19,252 bases of DNA from the NCBI GenBank assembly GCA_037443265.1, contig JBBIOR010000010.1:10827-30078 (forward strand), written 5' to 3'. The DNA comes from Candidatus Fraserbacteria bacterium. GTDB lineage: Bacteria; Bipolaricaulota; Bipolaricaulia; RBG-16-55-9. A program made the position numbers and the translations under genes. Numbering within the stretch: the stretch's first letter is position 1; each line of letters begins with the position of its first letter. Shown piece by piece: positions 7,847 to 13,777 of the stretch. The notes under the pieces are model-generated. The model did no database searches and was not told the origin of the DNA. It saw only the letters and a list, made by a program, of their open reading frames with translations.

Positions 7847-8860
7847 TTAACTGAGCTGGATCTCTTCTTCTTGGATGAGACTTTCGAATTGAGCCAGGCG
7901 GCGGCGCAAGCGGCCATGCGCGAGCTTTTCCAGCGCTTCCTTCTCGATCTGGCGAATGCGCTCGCGGCTCAAATGGAAAAGCTCTCCGACTTTCTCCAGA
8001 GTCATCGGCTGCTGCCCATTTCGCAAGCCAAATCGATATTCGAGGATCCGCCGCTCTCGCTCCGTCAGTTCGCCTAGGGCCTCATAGAGTTCCTCCACGG
8101 AGAGTTCTTTGAGAGCCTCGCGAAGGGCGGAGCGATCCTCCGACCAGATGAAGTCGCCTAGAACGCTCTCCTCTTCATCGCCGACGGGCTCTTCGAACGA
8201 GCGCGTGTAGGGCGTGATCTTCTTGGCCCGCTCGATCTCCTCTTTGGGCATCTTCAGCATCTCGGCCAGCTCTTCGGTTGTGGGAGGCACGCCGTGGTTC
8301 TGAACGTACTCCTCCTCGGCCTTATAGATCTTGCGCATGAGCTCCAGCATATGGGTGGGAATGCGAATGGTGCGCGCCTTGTCCGCGATCGCTCGGGTGA
8401 TGGCCTGGCGAATCCACCACGTGGCATAGGTAGAGAATTTGTAGCCCTTGGTGTAGTCGAATTTCTCGATGGCCTTCATCAGCCCAATGTTGCCTTCCTG
8501 AATGAGATCTAGCAGGGGCAATCCAGACCCCTTGTGGCGCTTGGCGATCGAGACGACCAAGCGGAGATTGGCCAGAGCCAGCTGCTGGCGCGCCTTCTCC
8601 TCGCCCCGGGCCACGCGTTTGGCTAGCTTCACCTCCTCCTCACGGGTGAGAAGCGGCACTCGGCCGATCTCCTGCAGGTAGAGCTTCACCAAATCCTCGG
8701 AAGCGTTCGCTTCCATCTCCTCTTCTTCCATGAACTCTTCCTCCTGGTCTGCTAGTAGGGAAGGAGGCTCCGCCGTCTCTTCCGATTCCTCATCCAACAG
8801 GTCTACACTTGCAATGGTTTCACTCAGCTTCACAGTTGATCCCTTCCTATGGTTCATCAT
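7847..8860 (-). CDS. RNA polymerase sigma-70 factor, RpoD/SigA-like (group 1/2); the start may instead be GTG at 8833
   Basis: Region 1.2 ([19 protein letters not shown]), region 2 ([43 protein letters not shown]), ARTIRIP, and the region 4.2 HTH ([15 protein letters not shown]). The N-terminus is short and acidic. Confidence 0.96.
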
Positions 8861-8943: not shown

Positions 8944-9002
8944 CCTCCTCACTCTTCTCTCGTGCCCCAATCGGCTTCCCACAGCTTGAGAAAGCGTTGG
9001 GT

Positions 9003-9031
9003 ATTGTAGCGCAAAAGCGCCCTGTTGTCAA
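9003..9031 (-). promoter_or_regulatory. near-consensus sigma70 promoter driving the sigma-factor gene
   Basis: Minus strand TTGACA-N17-TACAAT. Confidence 0.8.
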
Positions 9032-9054
9032 GAGGATAGCAGCTCGCGTAAAAT
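9025..9054 (+). promoter_or_regulatory. promoter for the MuF-motif/comEA pair
   Basis: TTGTCA-N18-TAAAAT, ending 8 nt before ATG 9063. Confidence 0.55.
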
Positions 9055-9062
9055 GGGGCTCT

Positions 9063-9647
9063 ATGAGGGGGCGGGTCCAGCAATGGGTCGACCGAATTCG
9101 AGGGCAGATCTCTTTCTATCAATACTATGCTACGGTACACCCTGAGACGTGTGAGATCTGTCTTGGCCATCACGGTGAGATCTACCCTGGGCGGGAAGGC
9201 CATCCCCAGCCTCCCCTGCATCCCGGCTGCCGGTGCACCCTGCTCGAATTCCCCTCACGGGAGCTCGAGTATTACCAGCAGCATGGGATGCGCATGAAGC
9301 AGAGAGCCCAGCTGGAGAGGGAGCGCCGCCAACTCTTCCAACGGGGATGTGAAGCCCTGAGCCGCTCTGCTGCGGAGGCGCTTACGCTCTTTGCACAATC
9401 TGTACAGATTGAAATCTATATCAGTGACATCGAAGCCCTCTGTCGTGAGCAGAGGGAAGCCCTGCGTGCCTCCGCCAGCGTCTCACGGAAGCTGCGTGAC
9501 CTCTTCCTCAAAGCCTATCGGCATAAGTTCGAGGGGGAGAAATACCAATCCATGCCGGAGGGAATGAAATCCAAGCAGCGCGTGCACGGCCTGAGCGTCA
9601 TCCAAGAGCTCTTTAAAGAGTATGCAGAAGATTCGCGAGGTGCCTGA
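9063..9647 (+). CDS. hypothetical protein with a phage head morphogenesis (MuF/SPP1 gp7)-like Cys/His motif and a helical C-terminal region
   Basis: TCEICLGHHGEIY...PPLHPGCRC resembles the MuF signature (tCxxC..G..y...PPxHPNCRC). ATG 9063 is preferred to TTG 8997 because of the promoter position. Confidence 0.7.
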   Translation: MRGRVQQWVDRIRGQISFYQYYATVHPETCEICLGHHGEIYPGREGHPQPPLHPGCRCTLLEFPSRELEYYQQHGMRMKQRAQLERERRQLFQRGCEALSRSAAEALTLFAQSVQIEIYISDIEALCREQREALRASASVSRKLRDLFLKAYRHKFEGEKYQSMPEGMKSKQRVHGLSVIQELFKEYAEDSRGA

Positions 9648-9986
9648 TTGATGATGTTCTCTCGCTTCGAGGGAGCGGTCGTGATGGGCTTGGTTGCCTT
9701 GGCGATGATTGTGCTGGGTCTTTTTTGGCTTCTGCCCTCTGCTCCGATGGATCTGTCTTCTCCGAAGGACGAGCCTTTAGATATCAATCGCGCCTCGAGC
9801 GCAGAGTTGGCGGAGCTTCCCGGCCTCGGCCCCCTGCTTGCGGAGCGTATCATCCGCTATCGCATCCTCCATGGCCCCTTCCGCTCGCTTGAGGAGTTGC
9901 TGAAGATTCCCGGCATCGGGCCAAAAACCCTGGAGAGGTTGCGCCCGTTTGTGAGAATCTGCTCTCTCCCCGCCTGCAATTCTTAA
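9648..9986 (+). CDS. comEA: ComEA-family helix-hairpin-helix DNA-binding protein, membrane anchored (start TTG 9648 or ATG 9651)
   Basis: N-terminal TM helix, then LDINRASSAELAELPGLGPLLAERIIRYR..GPFRSLEELLKIPGIGPKTLERL (tandem HhH). SD GAGGTG at 9637-9642. Confidence 0.88.
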   Translation: MMMFSRFEGAVVMGLVALAMIVLGLFWLLPSAPMDLSSPKDEPLDINRASSAELAELPGLGPLLAERIIRYRILHGPFRSLEELLKIPGIGPKTLERLRPFVRICSLPACNS

Positions 9987-9997
9987 GAGAACGGGAT

Positions 9998-10987
9998 CTA
10001 GAGCACCCGCAGAAGTTTTACGATGAGCCACGCCAGAAGCGCACAAACTGGCAGAGTCAGCAGCCAGGCCAGGATGATATTGAATCCCACTCCCCAGCGC
10101 ACGGCCGAGAGGCGTTTCGAGGCTCCAACGCCCATCACCGCAGCGCTGATCACATGAGTGGTGCTGATGGGTAGCCCCAAGAGGGAATTGGCCCAGATCA
10201 CGGAGGCGGCCGAGGTCTCCGCGCTGAACCCGTGAATCGGACGCAAGTGCGTCAACCTCATCCCCAAGGTCCGGATGACCCGCCAACCGCCGAAGGCCGT
10301 GCCCAAGCCCATGGCAAGGGCCGCCGCCACCTTCACCCAAAGCGGCACCACCAGCTCCGGCAGAAGCCCCGCGCTGAAGAGCGCCAGGGTGATCACGCCC
10401 ATCGTCTTCTGAGCGTCATTGCTCCCATGGCTGAAGGCCATATACGCGGCTGAGGCCACCTGCGCCGGCTTAAAGAACCGGGTGACCCGAGCGGGTGAAG
10501 CCTTCCAGACGATACGCGTGAGCAGGAGTATGAGCAGAAAGGCCATGATGAATCCCACCACCGGCGAGAGCAGAATCGCCCAAAAGATCTTGATCACGCC
10601 GCTCCATTTGACGATTTCGATCCCCCCGCTCCCCAGCCCCGCCCCCACCAACCCTGCCAAGAGCGCGTGGCTGGCGCTCACCGGAAGCCCGAGGTACGTC
10701 GCCAGCGAGTTCCAGCCGCTCGCGGCCAGCAGCGCCGCCATCAGCGTGATCTGCGTGACGCTTGCTGGGTCGAGGATCTTGCCCGCCACCGTCTCAGCCA
10801 CGCTGGTGCTGACGAGTGCACCCACCAGGTTGAGGGCGGCTGCCATAGCGACGGCCGCTCGTGGCGTAAGAGCCCGGCTCCCGACGGACGTGGCGATGGC
10901 GTTGGCCGCATCGTTGAACCCGTTGGTGAAATCAAAAAAGAGGGCTACCGCCACGGCGAGGATCACAAGTCCCATGACATCAGGCAT
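9998..10987 (-). CDS. pit: inorganic phosphate transporter (PiT/PHO4 family)
   Basis: Signature motifs NGFNDAANAIAT, HGSNDAQKTMG, PVSASH and PISTTH. Multiple TM helices; directly downstream of DUF47. Confidence 0.95.
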   Translation of the reverse strand: MPDVMGLVILAVAVALFFDFTNGFNDAANAIATSVGSRALTPRAAVAMAAALNLVGALVSTSVAETVAGKILDPASVTQITLMAALLAASGWNSLATYLGLPVSASHALLAGLVGAGLGSGGIEIVKWSGVIKIFWAILLSPVVGFIMAFLLILLLTRIVWKASPARVTRFFKPAQVASAAYMAFSHGSNDAQKTMGVITLALFSAGLLPELVVPLWVKVAAALAMGLGTAFGGWRVIRTLGMRLTHLRPIHGFSAETSAASVIWANSLLGLPISTTHVISAAVMGVGASKRLSAVRWGVGFNIILAWLLTLPVCALLAWLIVKLLRVL

Positions 10988-10991
10988 AAGC

Positions 10992-11615
10992 TCAAGCGTG
11001 CTTGAGTACGATGCTCTCTAGAATGTTGGCCACATCTTCGCAGCGATCCGTGGCTTCCTCGAGGATCTGATAGATCTCGTTCCACTTGATGAGGGCTATA
11101 GGGTCCTTCTCTTGCTCGAACAGGTGAGCTATAGATTCTCGTGCCAGTTGATCGGCTCTCTCTTCTATTTTCTTAATATCGATGCAATGCTGGTATATTT
11201 TATCATTGCCCATGGCGCTGAGCACCGCAACGCCACGGCAGATCTCTTCCATGGCTTGATGGATGAGCTCGGCCAACTCTTGAGCCGCGCGGGTGGGCTG
11301 GGGGATCTTGAAAAGCACCATCCGATCGGCCACCGCTTCGATCAGATCCACCACGTCATCGATGACCCCGGCCAGCCTGTGGATGTCCTCACGGTCAATA
11401 GGAGTGACGAACGTCTGATCGAGCCTGCGAATCAACTCGTGTGTGATCTCATCGCCTTGGTGCTCAATCGCTTTGATCTTCTTGGCCACATCCTGGGGAG
11501 CCTGATAGTGGGTCGTGAGTTCCACAAGGTGTTTGGCCCCTTCCCGTCCGTTCTGCGCCGCTTGGAGCAAAAGTTCGAAGAAGCGCCCCTCTTTGGGGAA
11601 GATCCCCTTCCACAT
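10992..11615 (-). CDS. DUF47 / PhoU-like Pit accessory protein
   Basis: Motifs IEHQGDEITH, TFVTPIDREDI, DDVVD, IEERAD and LEEATDRCEDVA. SD AAGGAGG; typical DUF47-pit operon. Confidence 0.93.
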   Translation of the reverse strand: MWKGIFPKEGRFFELLLQAAQNGREGAKHLVELTTHYQAPQDVAKKIKAIEHQGDEITHELIRRLDQTFVTPIDREDIHRLAGVIDDVVDLIEAVADRMVLFKIPQPTRAAQELAELIHQAMEEICRGVAVLSAMGNDKIYQHCIDIKKIEERADQLARESIAHLFEQEKDPIALIKWNEIYQILEEATDRCEDVANILESIVLKHA

Positions 11616-11806: not shown

Positions 11807-13777
11807 GTGGGGGAAGTACGCACCATCTGTCTTGTGGGTCACTCGGGAGCGGGCAAGACGACTCTGGTAGAGGCACTGCTTAGAACTGGCGGACTCGAAG
11901 CCCATCTCGATACCAGCCCCGAGGCCCAGGCCCGAGGCAGCTCGGTGGACTTGAACGTGGCCTGCTTCCAAAAGGGTGAGCAGTTGCTCAACCTCCTCGA
12001 TGCACCCGGTTTCGCAGAATTTATCGAAGAGACTTGCAAGGGGTTGCATGTGGCCGAGACGGCTGTGCTCGTCGTGAACGCAGAGAAGGGCATCGAGGTG
12101 CAGACGGAGCAGGCGTGGCGGCTCATCGAGAAGTTTGAGAAGCCGGCTCTGGCTCTCGTCCACCGAATGGATCTGCCCAACGCCAACTTTGCCAAAGTCG
12201 TCTCGGAGTTGTGCGAGCGGTTCGAAGCGCATTTTGCGCCCCTCCAATGGCCCATCCATTCCGGTGGGACATTCCTGGGCGTGATCGACTTGATCGAGCA
12301 GAAGGCGATTTATTTTGACGGTCGTGCGAGCGCAGTCCCTGCGGAGTTGGCGGAGACCGCCTCTTCCGGCCGTGAGGCGCTTCTGGAAGCCCTGGCCGAA
12401 GTGGATGATCAATTGCTCACGCACTTTTTGGAAGATCAGGCCATCCCTGTGGATGAGATTCGCCATGCCCTCAAGGAGGGGATCAAGCGGAGGGTGGTCA
12501 TCCCCGTGTTGGCCACGGCCAAAGACGCCCAGAAATCGCTCGAGCTGTTCTTGGAGATGGTCGTCCAGGCCACTCCTTCCGCCTCGGAATTGCATCCGGC
12601 TTCCGACTCGCTCAGCGGGCTGATCTTCAACGTGGCCTCGGATCAGTATCTGGGGGCCATGGCCTATGTGAAGCTCTACAGCGGGACGCTTTTCGAAGGC
12701 GGAGAGTTCATTAATATTCGCAGCAGAACGAAGGAGCGAGTCCGTGAGATCCTGCGCCCGATGGGAGATAGACTGCAGAAGATCCACCAGGCCGGAGCGG
12801 GCGAGATCATCGTGCTTACGAAGCTGAGTGCGTGCGCACTAGGGGAGACCCTGGCGGCTGACGAGAGTCAGGAGCCTCTGGCTTGGGTGGAGTTCCCCAA
12901 GCCGGTCTTCCCGCGGGCGATCGAGCCCCTCACCCAAGCCGATGAAGAGAAGATGAGCACGGCCTTGCGCGAACTCGTCCAGACGAAGGCCACGCTGGCC
13001 GTATGGCGTGATGACGTCACGAAGGAGACGATCTTCGCCGGTTTGGGCGATACGCAGCTAGCTGTCATGGTCGATCGCTTAAAGAATCGCTATGGGACGG
13101 GCGTGCGGCTCATCCGGCCGCGCGTGCCCTACAAAGAGACGATCACAAAACTGGCCCAGGGGCAGTACAAGCACAAAAAACAGACCGGCGGTCGCGGCCA
13201 GTACGGGGAAGTCCATCTACGCGTAGAGCCCCTGGAGCGCGGAGCGGGCTTCCAGTTCGTGGATGAGGTCAAAGGAGGCGTCATCCCCAGTCAATTCATT
13301 CCCGCCGTCGAGAAGGGCGTGGTGGAGGCGATGCAGGAGGGCATTTATAAATATCCCATCACGGATCTTCGCGTGGCGGTCTTCTACGGCAGCCATCACG
13401 AAGTCGACTCTTCTGAGATCGCCTTCAAGATCGCCGCGTCTCAGGCGTTTAAGCTGGCGATACAGAGCGCGCATCCTGTGCTGCTAGAGCCTCTCATGAA
13501 GCTCACGATTCACTCCCCGCGCGAGTTTACGGGAGACATCATGAGTAGTCTCTCCGGCAAGCGCGGCCGCATCTTGGGGATGGAGCCGGAGAGTAAAGAT
13601 CTCGAGCGCATCGAAGCCGAAGTCCCGCTGGCCGAAGTGCAAGATTACGCCTTGGAGCTCAAGTCGATCACCCAAGGGCGGGCGACGTTTCAGCTCGAGT
13701 TCGTGCGCTACCAGCCCGTGACATCCGAGAAGCTGACAGAAGAGCTCCTAAAGCGGGAGCGTCGGGATGGGCCATGA
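11807..13777 (+). CDS. elongation factor G paralog (EF-G2/FusA-like)
   Basis: P-loop GHSGAGKTTL, DAPG, domain III (AIEP..DEEKM, GLGDTQL), domain IV (PYKETI, HKKQTGGRGQYG, GSHHEVDSSEIAF) and domain V (LLEP, YALELKSITQGRA). GTG start with SD AGGAGG. Confidence 0.93.
   Translation: MGEVRTICLVGHSGAGKTTLVEALLRTGGLEAHLDTSPEAQARGSSVDLNVACFQKGEQLLNLLDAPGFAEFIEETCKGLHVAETAVLVVNAEKGIEVQTEQAWRLIEKFEKPALALVHRMDLPNANFAKVVSELCERFEAHFAPLQWPIHSGGTFLGVIDLIEQKAIYFDGRASAVPAELAETASSGREALLEALAEVDDQLLTHFLEDQAIPVDEIRHALKEGIKRRVVIPVLATAKDAQKSLELFLEMVVQATPSASELHPASDSLSGLIFNVASDQYLGAMAYVKLYSGTLFEGGEFINIRSRTKERVREILRPMGDRLQKIHQAGAGEIIVLTKLSACALGETLAADESQEPLAWVEFPKPVFPRAIEPLTQADEEKMSTALRELVQTKATLAVWRDDVTKETIFAGLGDTQLAVMVDRLKNRYGTGVRLIRPRVPYKETITKLAQGQYKHKKQTGGRGQYGEVHLRVEPLERGAGFQFVDEVKGGVIPSQFIPAVEKGVVEAMQEGIYKYPITDLRVAVFYGSHHEVDSSEIAFKIAASQAFKLAIQSAHPVLLEPLMKLTIHSPREFTGDIMSSLSGKRGRILGMEPESKDLERIEAEVPLAEVQDYALELKSITQGRATFQLEFVRYQPVTSEKLTEELLKRERRDGP

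Follow-up and report, generated by a model that had tools for sequence, protein, structure and literature searches.

What is part of a phage head protein doing in front of a gene for DNA uptake, in a stretch of bacterial DNA that otherwise carries housekeeping genes? The question is raised by a window of 19,252 nucleotides (nt), the whole stretch of DNA analysed here, which spans C10:10827-30078 of a 1.69-Mb, 88% complete assembly of a Candidatus Fraserbacteria bacterium. Within it, a gene for a protein of 194 amino acids (aa) that resembles the MuF domain of phage Mu gpF and SPP1 gp7 is followed at once by a comEA-type gene on the same strand. A preliminary description of this DNA, made from the letters alone, had called the first protein an orphan, phage-derived and probably zinc-binding, and had supposed that it is co-expressed with a DNA-uptake receptor and might escort or process incoming DNA. 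Our best explanation, which we hold with slightly less than even confidence from sequence comparison, is that a phage DNA-delivery module gave rise to it and that it now assists the ComEA/ComEC DNA-uptake apparatus from the cytoplasm, as an accessory factor peculiar to this lineage.

The N-terminal module is a partial MuF domain

The open frame runs from 8997 to 9647 (+), and the start at ATG 9063, which gives 194 aa, matches the N-termini of relatives. The features of this gene, all on the forward strand, are as follows.

9063–9647, +: coding sequence of the MuF-core/helical-bundle protein, 194 aa, stop codon TGA at 9645–9647
9102–9266, +: MuF/SPP1 gp7 C-terminal core module, residues 14–68 (strand, Cys knuckle and short helix, loop, strand)
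9150–9236, +: Cys/His motif from C30 to C58, from the 36-member alignment
9255–9626, +: lineage-specific helical domain, residues 65–188, from the structure model and the alignment

Profile comparisons give good support for homology between the N-terminal module and the C-terminal core of MuF. Pfam Phage_Mu_F (PF04233) matches residues 17–60 over profile positions 65–111 of 112 (E = 6.4e-5; 24.1 bits against a cut-off of 29.6), and TIGR01641 (phageSPP1_gp7) matches residues 15–61 over positions 57–106 of 109 (E = 2.3e-8; 34.4 against 39.65). Both curated cut-offs are failed by the 194-aa protein, which falls outside the curated Phage_Mu_F family because it lacks the domain's N-terminal half and is encoded outside a phage context. 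PF04233 is matched by 17 of the 36 family members at E ≤ 0.1 (best E 6.4e-5), 12 head-and-packaging families of PHROGs (minor head proteins) match the core region with E-values down to 8e-9, and hhalign aligned the family with 11 full MuF proteins at 98.9% probability and E = 1.8e-17 over 53 columns (query residues 14–68); consensus identity between the family and MuF is 42% over about 53 residues. A search of 1.84 billion representatives with the family profile, built from the 36 members, returned 27 proteins at E ≤ 1e-30 and then a weak tail matching only profile positions ~13–65. In the reverse check, 29 of 30 such weak matches carried Phage_Mu_F, 18 of them above the Pfam cut-off, and several also bore portal, ADP-ribosyltransferase or VG15 domains. 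The ESM Atlas look-up led to small, mostly viral clusters with PF04233 in 33–57% of members. The profile and structure checks that the preliminary description had proposed therefore found similarity to MuF (Pfam E = 6.4e-5, hhalign 98.9%, short alignments to viral structure models), and its claim of a MuF/gp7 signature stands for the C-terminal core by Pfam, TIGR01641, PHROGs and hhalign but not for the whole domain, half of which is present and fails the cut-offs. A genome-wide scan gave no second MuF match elsewhere in the same genome.

The Cys/His motif, TCEICLGHHGEIY...PPLHPGCRC, lies at nt 9150–9236 as first described, with C30 encoded at 9150–9152 and C58 at 9234–9236. C33, H37 and C56 are invariant in the family (n = 36), and 34 of the 36 members have C30 as well; these four best-kept residues could, on the alignment, form one metal site. 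The HPxCRC half of the motif is present in the window's protein but does not extend family-wide, C58 being kept in 23 of 36 members and H53, as read from the alignment, in ~25 of 36.

Proteins from other organisms were also seen that start directly with the half-MuF core (P0059, P0060, P0073, P0067, P0065, P0085 and P0068) and continue through coiled coils into long, unrelated C-terminal regions that can reach 368 aa; they look polymorphic-toxin-type. The position of the core at their start indicates that the 50-residue core also circulates alone as an N-terminal module.

Predicted structure

The AlphaFold2 (AF2) model made with the family alignment has a predicted local distance difference test (pLDDT) score of 93.8 and a predicted template modelling score of 0.86. 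It begins with a short N-terminal helix, a strand (residues 17–23), a helix (31–36) with C30/C33, a loop and a strand (58–64) that comes after C56/C58; there follow a long helix (65–98) and five more helices to residue 188, in agreement with the charged helix and helical C-terminus that had been read from the translation. The helical bundle is confidently predicted in this model and is without a known relative: no Pfam family recurs over the helical domain across the 36 members, Foldseek found no match to the full model in the PDB at E ≤ 0.001, and VIA-align gave generic helical matches only (best Z 7.3, a fungal helical protein). The AlphaFold and Foldseek check suggested beforehand, run on the whole model and on the N-terminal domain, thus bore out the helical C-terminus and gave no PDB match. 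Residues invariant across the family in the helical domain are M78, E85, R88, R89, L144, Y161 and G176.

The N-terminal domain folded alone reached a pLDDT of 85.4, with a best Foldseek E-value of 2.5 and a best VIA-align Z of 3.0, and so resembled no known fold in these libraries. Among the viral models of BFVD, only the first 47–64 residues align, to models named 'minor capsid protein' and 'phage head morphogenesis'; two matches superpose at a root-mean-square deviation of 1.3–1.8 Å over 47–49 columns, and probabilities reach 1.0, with E-values (0.19 or worse) that are weak because the aligned region is short. Sequence searches of the PDB with the family profile and with the MuF profile returned no solved MuF structure and nothing meaningful.

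M78 (9294–9296) is invariant in 36 of 36 members, and about ten database gene calls of 67–119 aa start exactly there and comprise the helical domain alone (P0012, P0033, P0035, P0036, P0038, P0039, P0041, P0042, P0043 and P0050). M78 could be an internal start, or these calls could be an artefact of contigs that begin within the first 77 codons, which hold no other Met. Shine-Dalgarno-like purine runs precede M78 in 19 of 30 loci, where the codons are purine-rich anyway, and a metagenome scan with the short form P0012 found no relative.

A single-copy cellular gene paired with comEA

The distribution of the gene was followed in 101 genomes of the phylum, with records named Candidatus Fraserbacteria, Bipolaricaulota or Acetothermia. 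Seventy-eight of the 101 genomes have the MuF-core gene, each in a single copy; among them are 45 of the 55 high-quality genomes, and 33 of the 39 genera are represented. A single-protein query and a profile query gave the same result, so that 'orphan' was a misnomer. Protein identity is 37–58% within the same family, 38–50% within the same order and 29–40% within the same class, a fall with taxonomic distance that fits vertical descent. A word-based search reached only 12 proteins, at 53–60% identity, one of them a hypothetical protein of Candidatus Fraserbacteria RBG_16_55_9. The 17 named records with relatives are those of Candidatus Bipolaricaulota (10), Candidatus Fraserbacteria (4), Candidatus Acetothermia (1), an 'uncultured Thermotogae bacterium' (1) and an 'uncultured bacterium' (1); as judged by these searches, the family is restricted to one uncultured phylum. 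A pattern scan of IMG/VR gave 5 pattern matches, none of them a relative, with patterns that fit only the window's order and hence limited sensitivity, and a search for longer, fused forms of the MuF-core protein yielded no scoring match among 1061 candidates.

Where the gene is present, it is followed by comEA. A ComEA-type open reading frame (ORF) lies directly downstream in 29 of 30 loci (27 by tblastn and 2 more by Pfam), the 30th ending at a contig edge, and 76 of the 78 genomes have a same-strand HHH_3 match 119–445 nt past the end of the MuF-core match. The exceptions are G083, where the contig ends, and G022 (L046, G022:C6), whose downstream ORF still has the hydrophobic start but stops after ~50 residues, without the HhH domain. 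Apart from this broken G022 locus, a MuF-core gene away from comEA was not seen in the 78 genomes. G022, which is 91% complete, has no HHH_3 match anywhere, and its locus may reflect a pseudogene, a rearrangement or a misassembly. The outer flanks vary by lineage, with sigma-70/EF-G-like/Pit, glycosyltransferase 4/RNase P/GreA, SurE/Q_salvage, FUR and other arrangements; since the pair stays constant while the flanks change, the conserved unit is the two-gene pair.

None of 48 flanking ORFs from 19 related loci matches a phage family, and in the window a family scan matched no portal, terminase, integrase or other phage family, in line with the housekeeping flanks reported at the outset. Together these observations support a cellular gene, not a prophage-borne one. 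The preliminary description had asked whether adjacency to comEA and absence of phage genes hold across the lineage, and both do (76 of 78 genomes; 0 of 48 flanking ORFs, 19 loci); homology to MuF, a non-prophage setting and a comEA linkage shared beyond this genome, the three points on which it had staked its reading, were each found.

The downstream gene and the DNA-uptake set

The features of the downstream gene, likewise on the forward strand, are as follows.

9637–9642, +: Shine-Dalgarno-like GAGGTG for comEA, inside the upstream gene, read from the sequence
9648–9986, +: ComEA-type coding sequence, 112 aa, start TTG 9648 or ATG 9651/9654, stop codon TAA at 9984–9986
9675–9737, +: hydrophobic N-terminal segment of ComEA, ~residues 10–30, read from the translation
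9771–9956, +: HhH DNA-binding domain of ComEA, residues 42–103, Pfam HHH_3

The ComEA-type protein matches Pfam HHH_3 at 84.5 bits against a cut-off of 27 (E = 5.4e-24) and passes TIGR00426, 'ComEA HhH repeat region', at 53.6 against 53.1; the full-length TIGR01259 model is not reached (64.9 against 152.35). Its gene is the only HHH_3 match in its own genome, and the nearest relatives of greater length carry the source name 'competence protein ComEA'. The hydrophobic stretch is conserved in relatives and is read, from sequence, as a membrane anchor with the N-terminus inside. The short cytoplasmic tail before it (window 9648–9680) carries a conserved motif, which reads R-S/T-D in the order of the window and Q-E-R-G elsewhere in the phylum, in other families; because the tail motif is kept where the upstream gene has been lost, it is not specific to the pair. 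In genomes of family f6 (for example, G001:C1:1659520-1659708 and G002:C1:242195-242383), many have a second HHH_3 ORF of ~570–610 aa, and Tex-like HHH_3 ORFs of ~720–780 aa occur there as well.

The pair occurs in organisms with the usual inner-membrane uptake genes. In the genome of the window, a single ComEC occurs together with a ComF-like gene (83 bits) and DprA (274 bits), and ComEC is found in 94 of the 101 phylum genomes, including 55 of 55 high-quality ones; comEC is unlinked, lying on contig C17 with the pair on C10. Since a ComF-like gene is present, the MuF-core protein adds to the uptake set and is no substitute for ComF, and its candidacy as a ComFC replacement was dropped. An anti-sigma role was likewise dropped, because a divergent sigma-70 neighbour occurs in only 5 of 19 flank-scanned loci (L003, L004, L006, L016 and the window), all in the window's order. 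A complex prediction for the MuF-core protein with ComEA, run with alignments, returned no answer (score 0.00) and bears neither way on binding.

Promoter-like sites and coupling

9025–9054, +: promoter-like TTGTCA-18-TAAAAT from the consensus scan, with TAAAAT at 9049–9054 as the −10 hexamer

The pair had been credited with its own promoter. What holds of this is only the consensus match at 9025–9054, one of two promoter-like sites in a scan that expected 0.7. In the window's order, though, a −10-like hexamer recurs 5–12 nt before the start at 10 of 16 loci; elsewhere 2 of 14 loci have it, and so do 2.5% of random positions. In the window the −10 hexamer ends 8 nt 5′ of ATG 9063, a spacing that implies a leaderless or near-leaderless mRNA, and the sequence suggests a leaderless bicistronic mRNA in the window's order. 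The TGA at 9645–9647 directly abuts TTG 9648 of the ComEA-type gene, and this junction, together with the comEA Shine-Dalgarno sequence inside the upstream gene, is as the preliminary description had it. Across 27 loci, the stop-to-start distance is −4 nt in 11 and otherwise mostly within a few tens of nucleotides, as far as automatic start choice allows.

A near-consensus, divergent promoter-like site at 9003–9031 (−), TTGACA-17-TACAAT (11/12), stands in front of the sigma-70 gene; it overlaps the pair's promoter-like site back to back and would give the sigma gene a leader of ~140 nt.

Neighbouring genes in the window

The immediate neighbours are the divergent sigma-70 gene (7847–8860, −) and a convergent Pit/PhoU_div pair (9998–11615, −). 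An EF-G-like GTPase of 656 aa (11807–13777, +) stands near the pair in the window's order (also at L003, L004, L006 and L016), and the other genes of the window belong to housekeeping families (enolase, DnaE, CofD, aminotransferase, amidase and others). At L004 the open frame with the ComEA match continues into the EF-G-like GTPase (507 aa, open-ended), which is probably an ORF-calling artefact.

Weighing the explanations

In the explanation that we tentatively prefer, the cell would have acquired a phage MuF/gp7 Cys/His core and fused it to a new helical bundle. The product would be a 22-kDa, probably cytoplasmic or membrane-peripheral protein; it has no signal peptide or export signal. The MuF-core gene and comEA would share one short, probably leaderless, bicistronic message, on which comEA translation would be coupled to the upstream gene through stop and start codons that abut or overlap, and the protein would work on the cytoplasmic side of the membrane, where its target would be the channel, the short N-terminal tail of ComEA or incoming DNA. 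Metal binding, co-transcription, cytoplasmic location and the tie to DNA uptake are all steps that we infer here. A wider proposal, that the MuF core is a general adaptor for DNA-translocating channels and that phage capture yielded a new transformation subunit made in fixed proportion with ComEA, is possible but doubtful.

Several observations weigh against the accessory-factor explanation. Eleven genomes keep the small comEA at the SurE/Q_salvage locus without a trace of the MuF-core gene (G024, G073, G032, G037, G039, G052, G068, G078, G096, G072 and G077; L034-L044, L047). They belong to four genera of one family, and 10 of the 11 retain ComEC. As comEA is kept where the MuF-core gene is lost, the protein is dispensable for ComEA's role and accessory to it; the losses are one-sided, as would be seen for an accessory that ComEA can do without but that itself depends on ComEA. 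H53 and C58, half of the 'MuF signature', have decayed in most families outside the window's order, and no structural relative found by Foldseek or VIA-align points to an activity. Moreover, the HhH domain is expected outside the membrane and the MuF-core protein inside, so that contact would be limited to the ComEA tail or anchor, and this topology, with no export signal on the MuF-core protein, limits a direct escort model of the kind first suggested.

At the loss loci themselves, SurE abuts comEA at the gap in G032, G039 and others; in G024, G073, G072 and G077 the gap is filled by an opposite-strand gene, by eye a UPF0016/GDT1-type membrane protein.

An alternative interpretation is that the gene is an operon passenger, a small zinc-type housekeeping protein of unrelated function whose coupling to comEA reflects compact genomes. 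The genomes are indeed small (~1–2.3 Mb), so short overlaps are common, and the 11 genomes that lost the gene while retaining comEA fit a passenger as well. We nevertheless consider this rather unlikely, because the pair is kept in 76 of 78 genomes despite repeatedly reshuffled outer flanks, because the gene is found at no other place in any of the 78, and because gene pairs conserved this deeply usually encode partners.

It is less likely still that the protein is a regulator, that is, a Cys/His nucleic-acid-binding protein controlling comEA (or itself) at transcription or translation. Such a role would suit a small protein encoded first in an operon, with a putative metal knuckle, an mRNA that looks leaderless and a mostly basic composition (median isoelectric point 8.7 in the family, n = 36; net charge +5 for the helical part of the window's protein), but the isoelectric points span 5.9–10.4, no helix-turn-helix or other known regulator family was detected by Pfam in the window's protein or the 36 members, and coupling gives roughly fixed protein amounts, an unusual arrangement between a regulator and what it regulates.

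We regard as very unlikely an extracytoplasmic or membrane-attached partner that meets the HhH domain of ComEA outside. The fragments P0046 (E = 4.2e-18) and P0051 (E = 6.7e-10) start, ahead of the Cys/His core, with hydrophobic segments that look by eye like a signal peptide or anchor and hint at membrane-attached versions of the protein, and many members have a short amphipathic helix at their start; however, the window's protein and all 30 loci are without a hydrophobic N-terminus of membrane-spanning length, basic residues after the hydrophobic segment of P0051 would keep its domain inside, and Cys/His metal sites are not typical of proteins outside the cytoplasm.

Finally, a prophage remnant or a MuF polymorphic toxin with a downstream immunity gene would account for the MuF-core similarity and for the same half-domain opening P0059, P0060 and P0073 with their long variable C-termini, but it is scarcely credible, being contradicted by every context test: no phage gene was found in the window or the 19 related loci, the gene is single-copy, follows taxonomy and carries one conserved C-terminal domain alignable across 36 members, the downstream gene encodes a ComEA-type HhH protein, PADLOC gave no match for the MuF-core protein, no toxin family matched across the 36 members, and no IMG/VR pattern match was a relative.

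Meaning and prior literature

Few phage head domains are as common as MuF. A cellular descendant cut to the 50-residue core, kept over the history of a phylum and locked to comEA would indicate the functional minimum of MuF and tie that part to DNA transport and not to capsid building. It is also a candidate extra competence component in a deep, uncultured lineage. If the wider proposal of a general channel adaptor is true, a phage DNA-delivery module would have been domesticated for cellular DNA uptake, and the pair would offer the first functional handle on a very common, still unexplained domain. With its small size and good prediction (pLDDT 93.8), the protein lends itself to expression and testing. 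Should the link to DNA uptake fail, we would be left with a conserved hypothetical protein of phage ancestry, lineage-specific and otherwise ordinary. As far as sequence comparison goes, the novelty lies in the architecture and the conserved context in which a domesticated phage domain is found.

Passages of Jamet et al. (2017, PMC5576092) state that the function of the MuF domain is unknown and place MuF in 35% of the tailed phages examined there. In the parts consulted of two papers from the Aravind group (PMC5512222, PMC3482391), MuF is treated as a virion-associated packaging module carrying effectors, and the corresponding text of PMC11445458 deals with another minor capsid protein, one of the decoration type. 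Neither this family nor a link between MuF and ComEA was the subject of any paper found, in a literature that leaves out most subscription journals. Searches for MuF–HhH fusions revealed none; they gave 4 unannotated short matches by tblastn of ComEA against 50,697 phage records, and PF04233 in 0 of 73 longer ComEA relatives.

Comparison with known systems

In the classical comEA-comEB-comEC type of operon, comEC adjoins comEA, whereas here a convergent Pit transporter gene follows comEA. ComFA and ComFC are cytoplasmic competence proteins with Cys clusters. If the accessory-factor explanation is right, the likeness to them would be that of a cytoplasmic metal-knuckle accessory of the ComEC channel encoded in a competence operon; no similarity to ComFA or ComFC in sequence or fold was noticed, without a search aimed at it.

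With the MuF polymorphic toxins of temperate phages (PMC5576092) the protein shares a MuF-type module, a C-terminal extension and a small gene directly downstream. It differs in that the extension is one conserved domain and no variable toxin, that its single-copy gene is passed on vertically, that the ComEA-type gene after it is not an immunity gene, and that there is no prophage.

The closest likeness is to the MuF/gp7 proteins themselves. The shared pattern is YQ(W/Y)YA..D/H..TC..C...HG..(F/Y)....PP.HP.CRC, and the strand-knuckle-strand shape predicted here aligns to viral minor capsid models over 47–64 residues. Compared with Mu gpF and SPP1 gp7, the N-terminal half is missing, and the core stands N-terminally and is followed by an unrelated helical bundle; the gene, unlike that of gp7, lies neither beside a portal gene nor in a phage head module. 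Passages of PMC6316719 describe a strong interaction of gp7 with the portal, cite gp7 as a DNA-binding protein and report that, of virions without gp7, only ~25% are infectious. Among MuF proteins, binding to the portal, which is a DNA channel, and to DNA, with packing in the capsid, is known for gp7 alone, and gp7 supports the start of infection. By analogy, the MuF-derived knuckle might serve a cellular DNA channel or its cargo as gp7 serves the phage portal, the MuF-core protein working, at most, like a stripped-down gp7.

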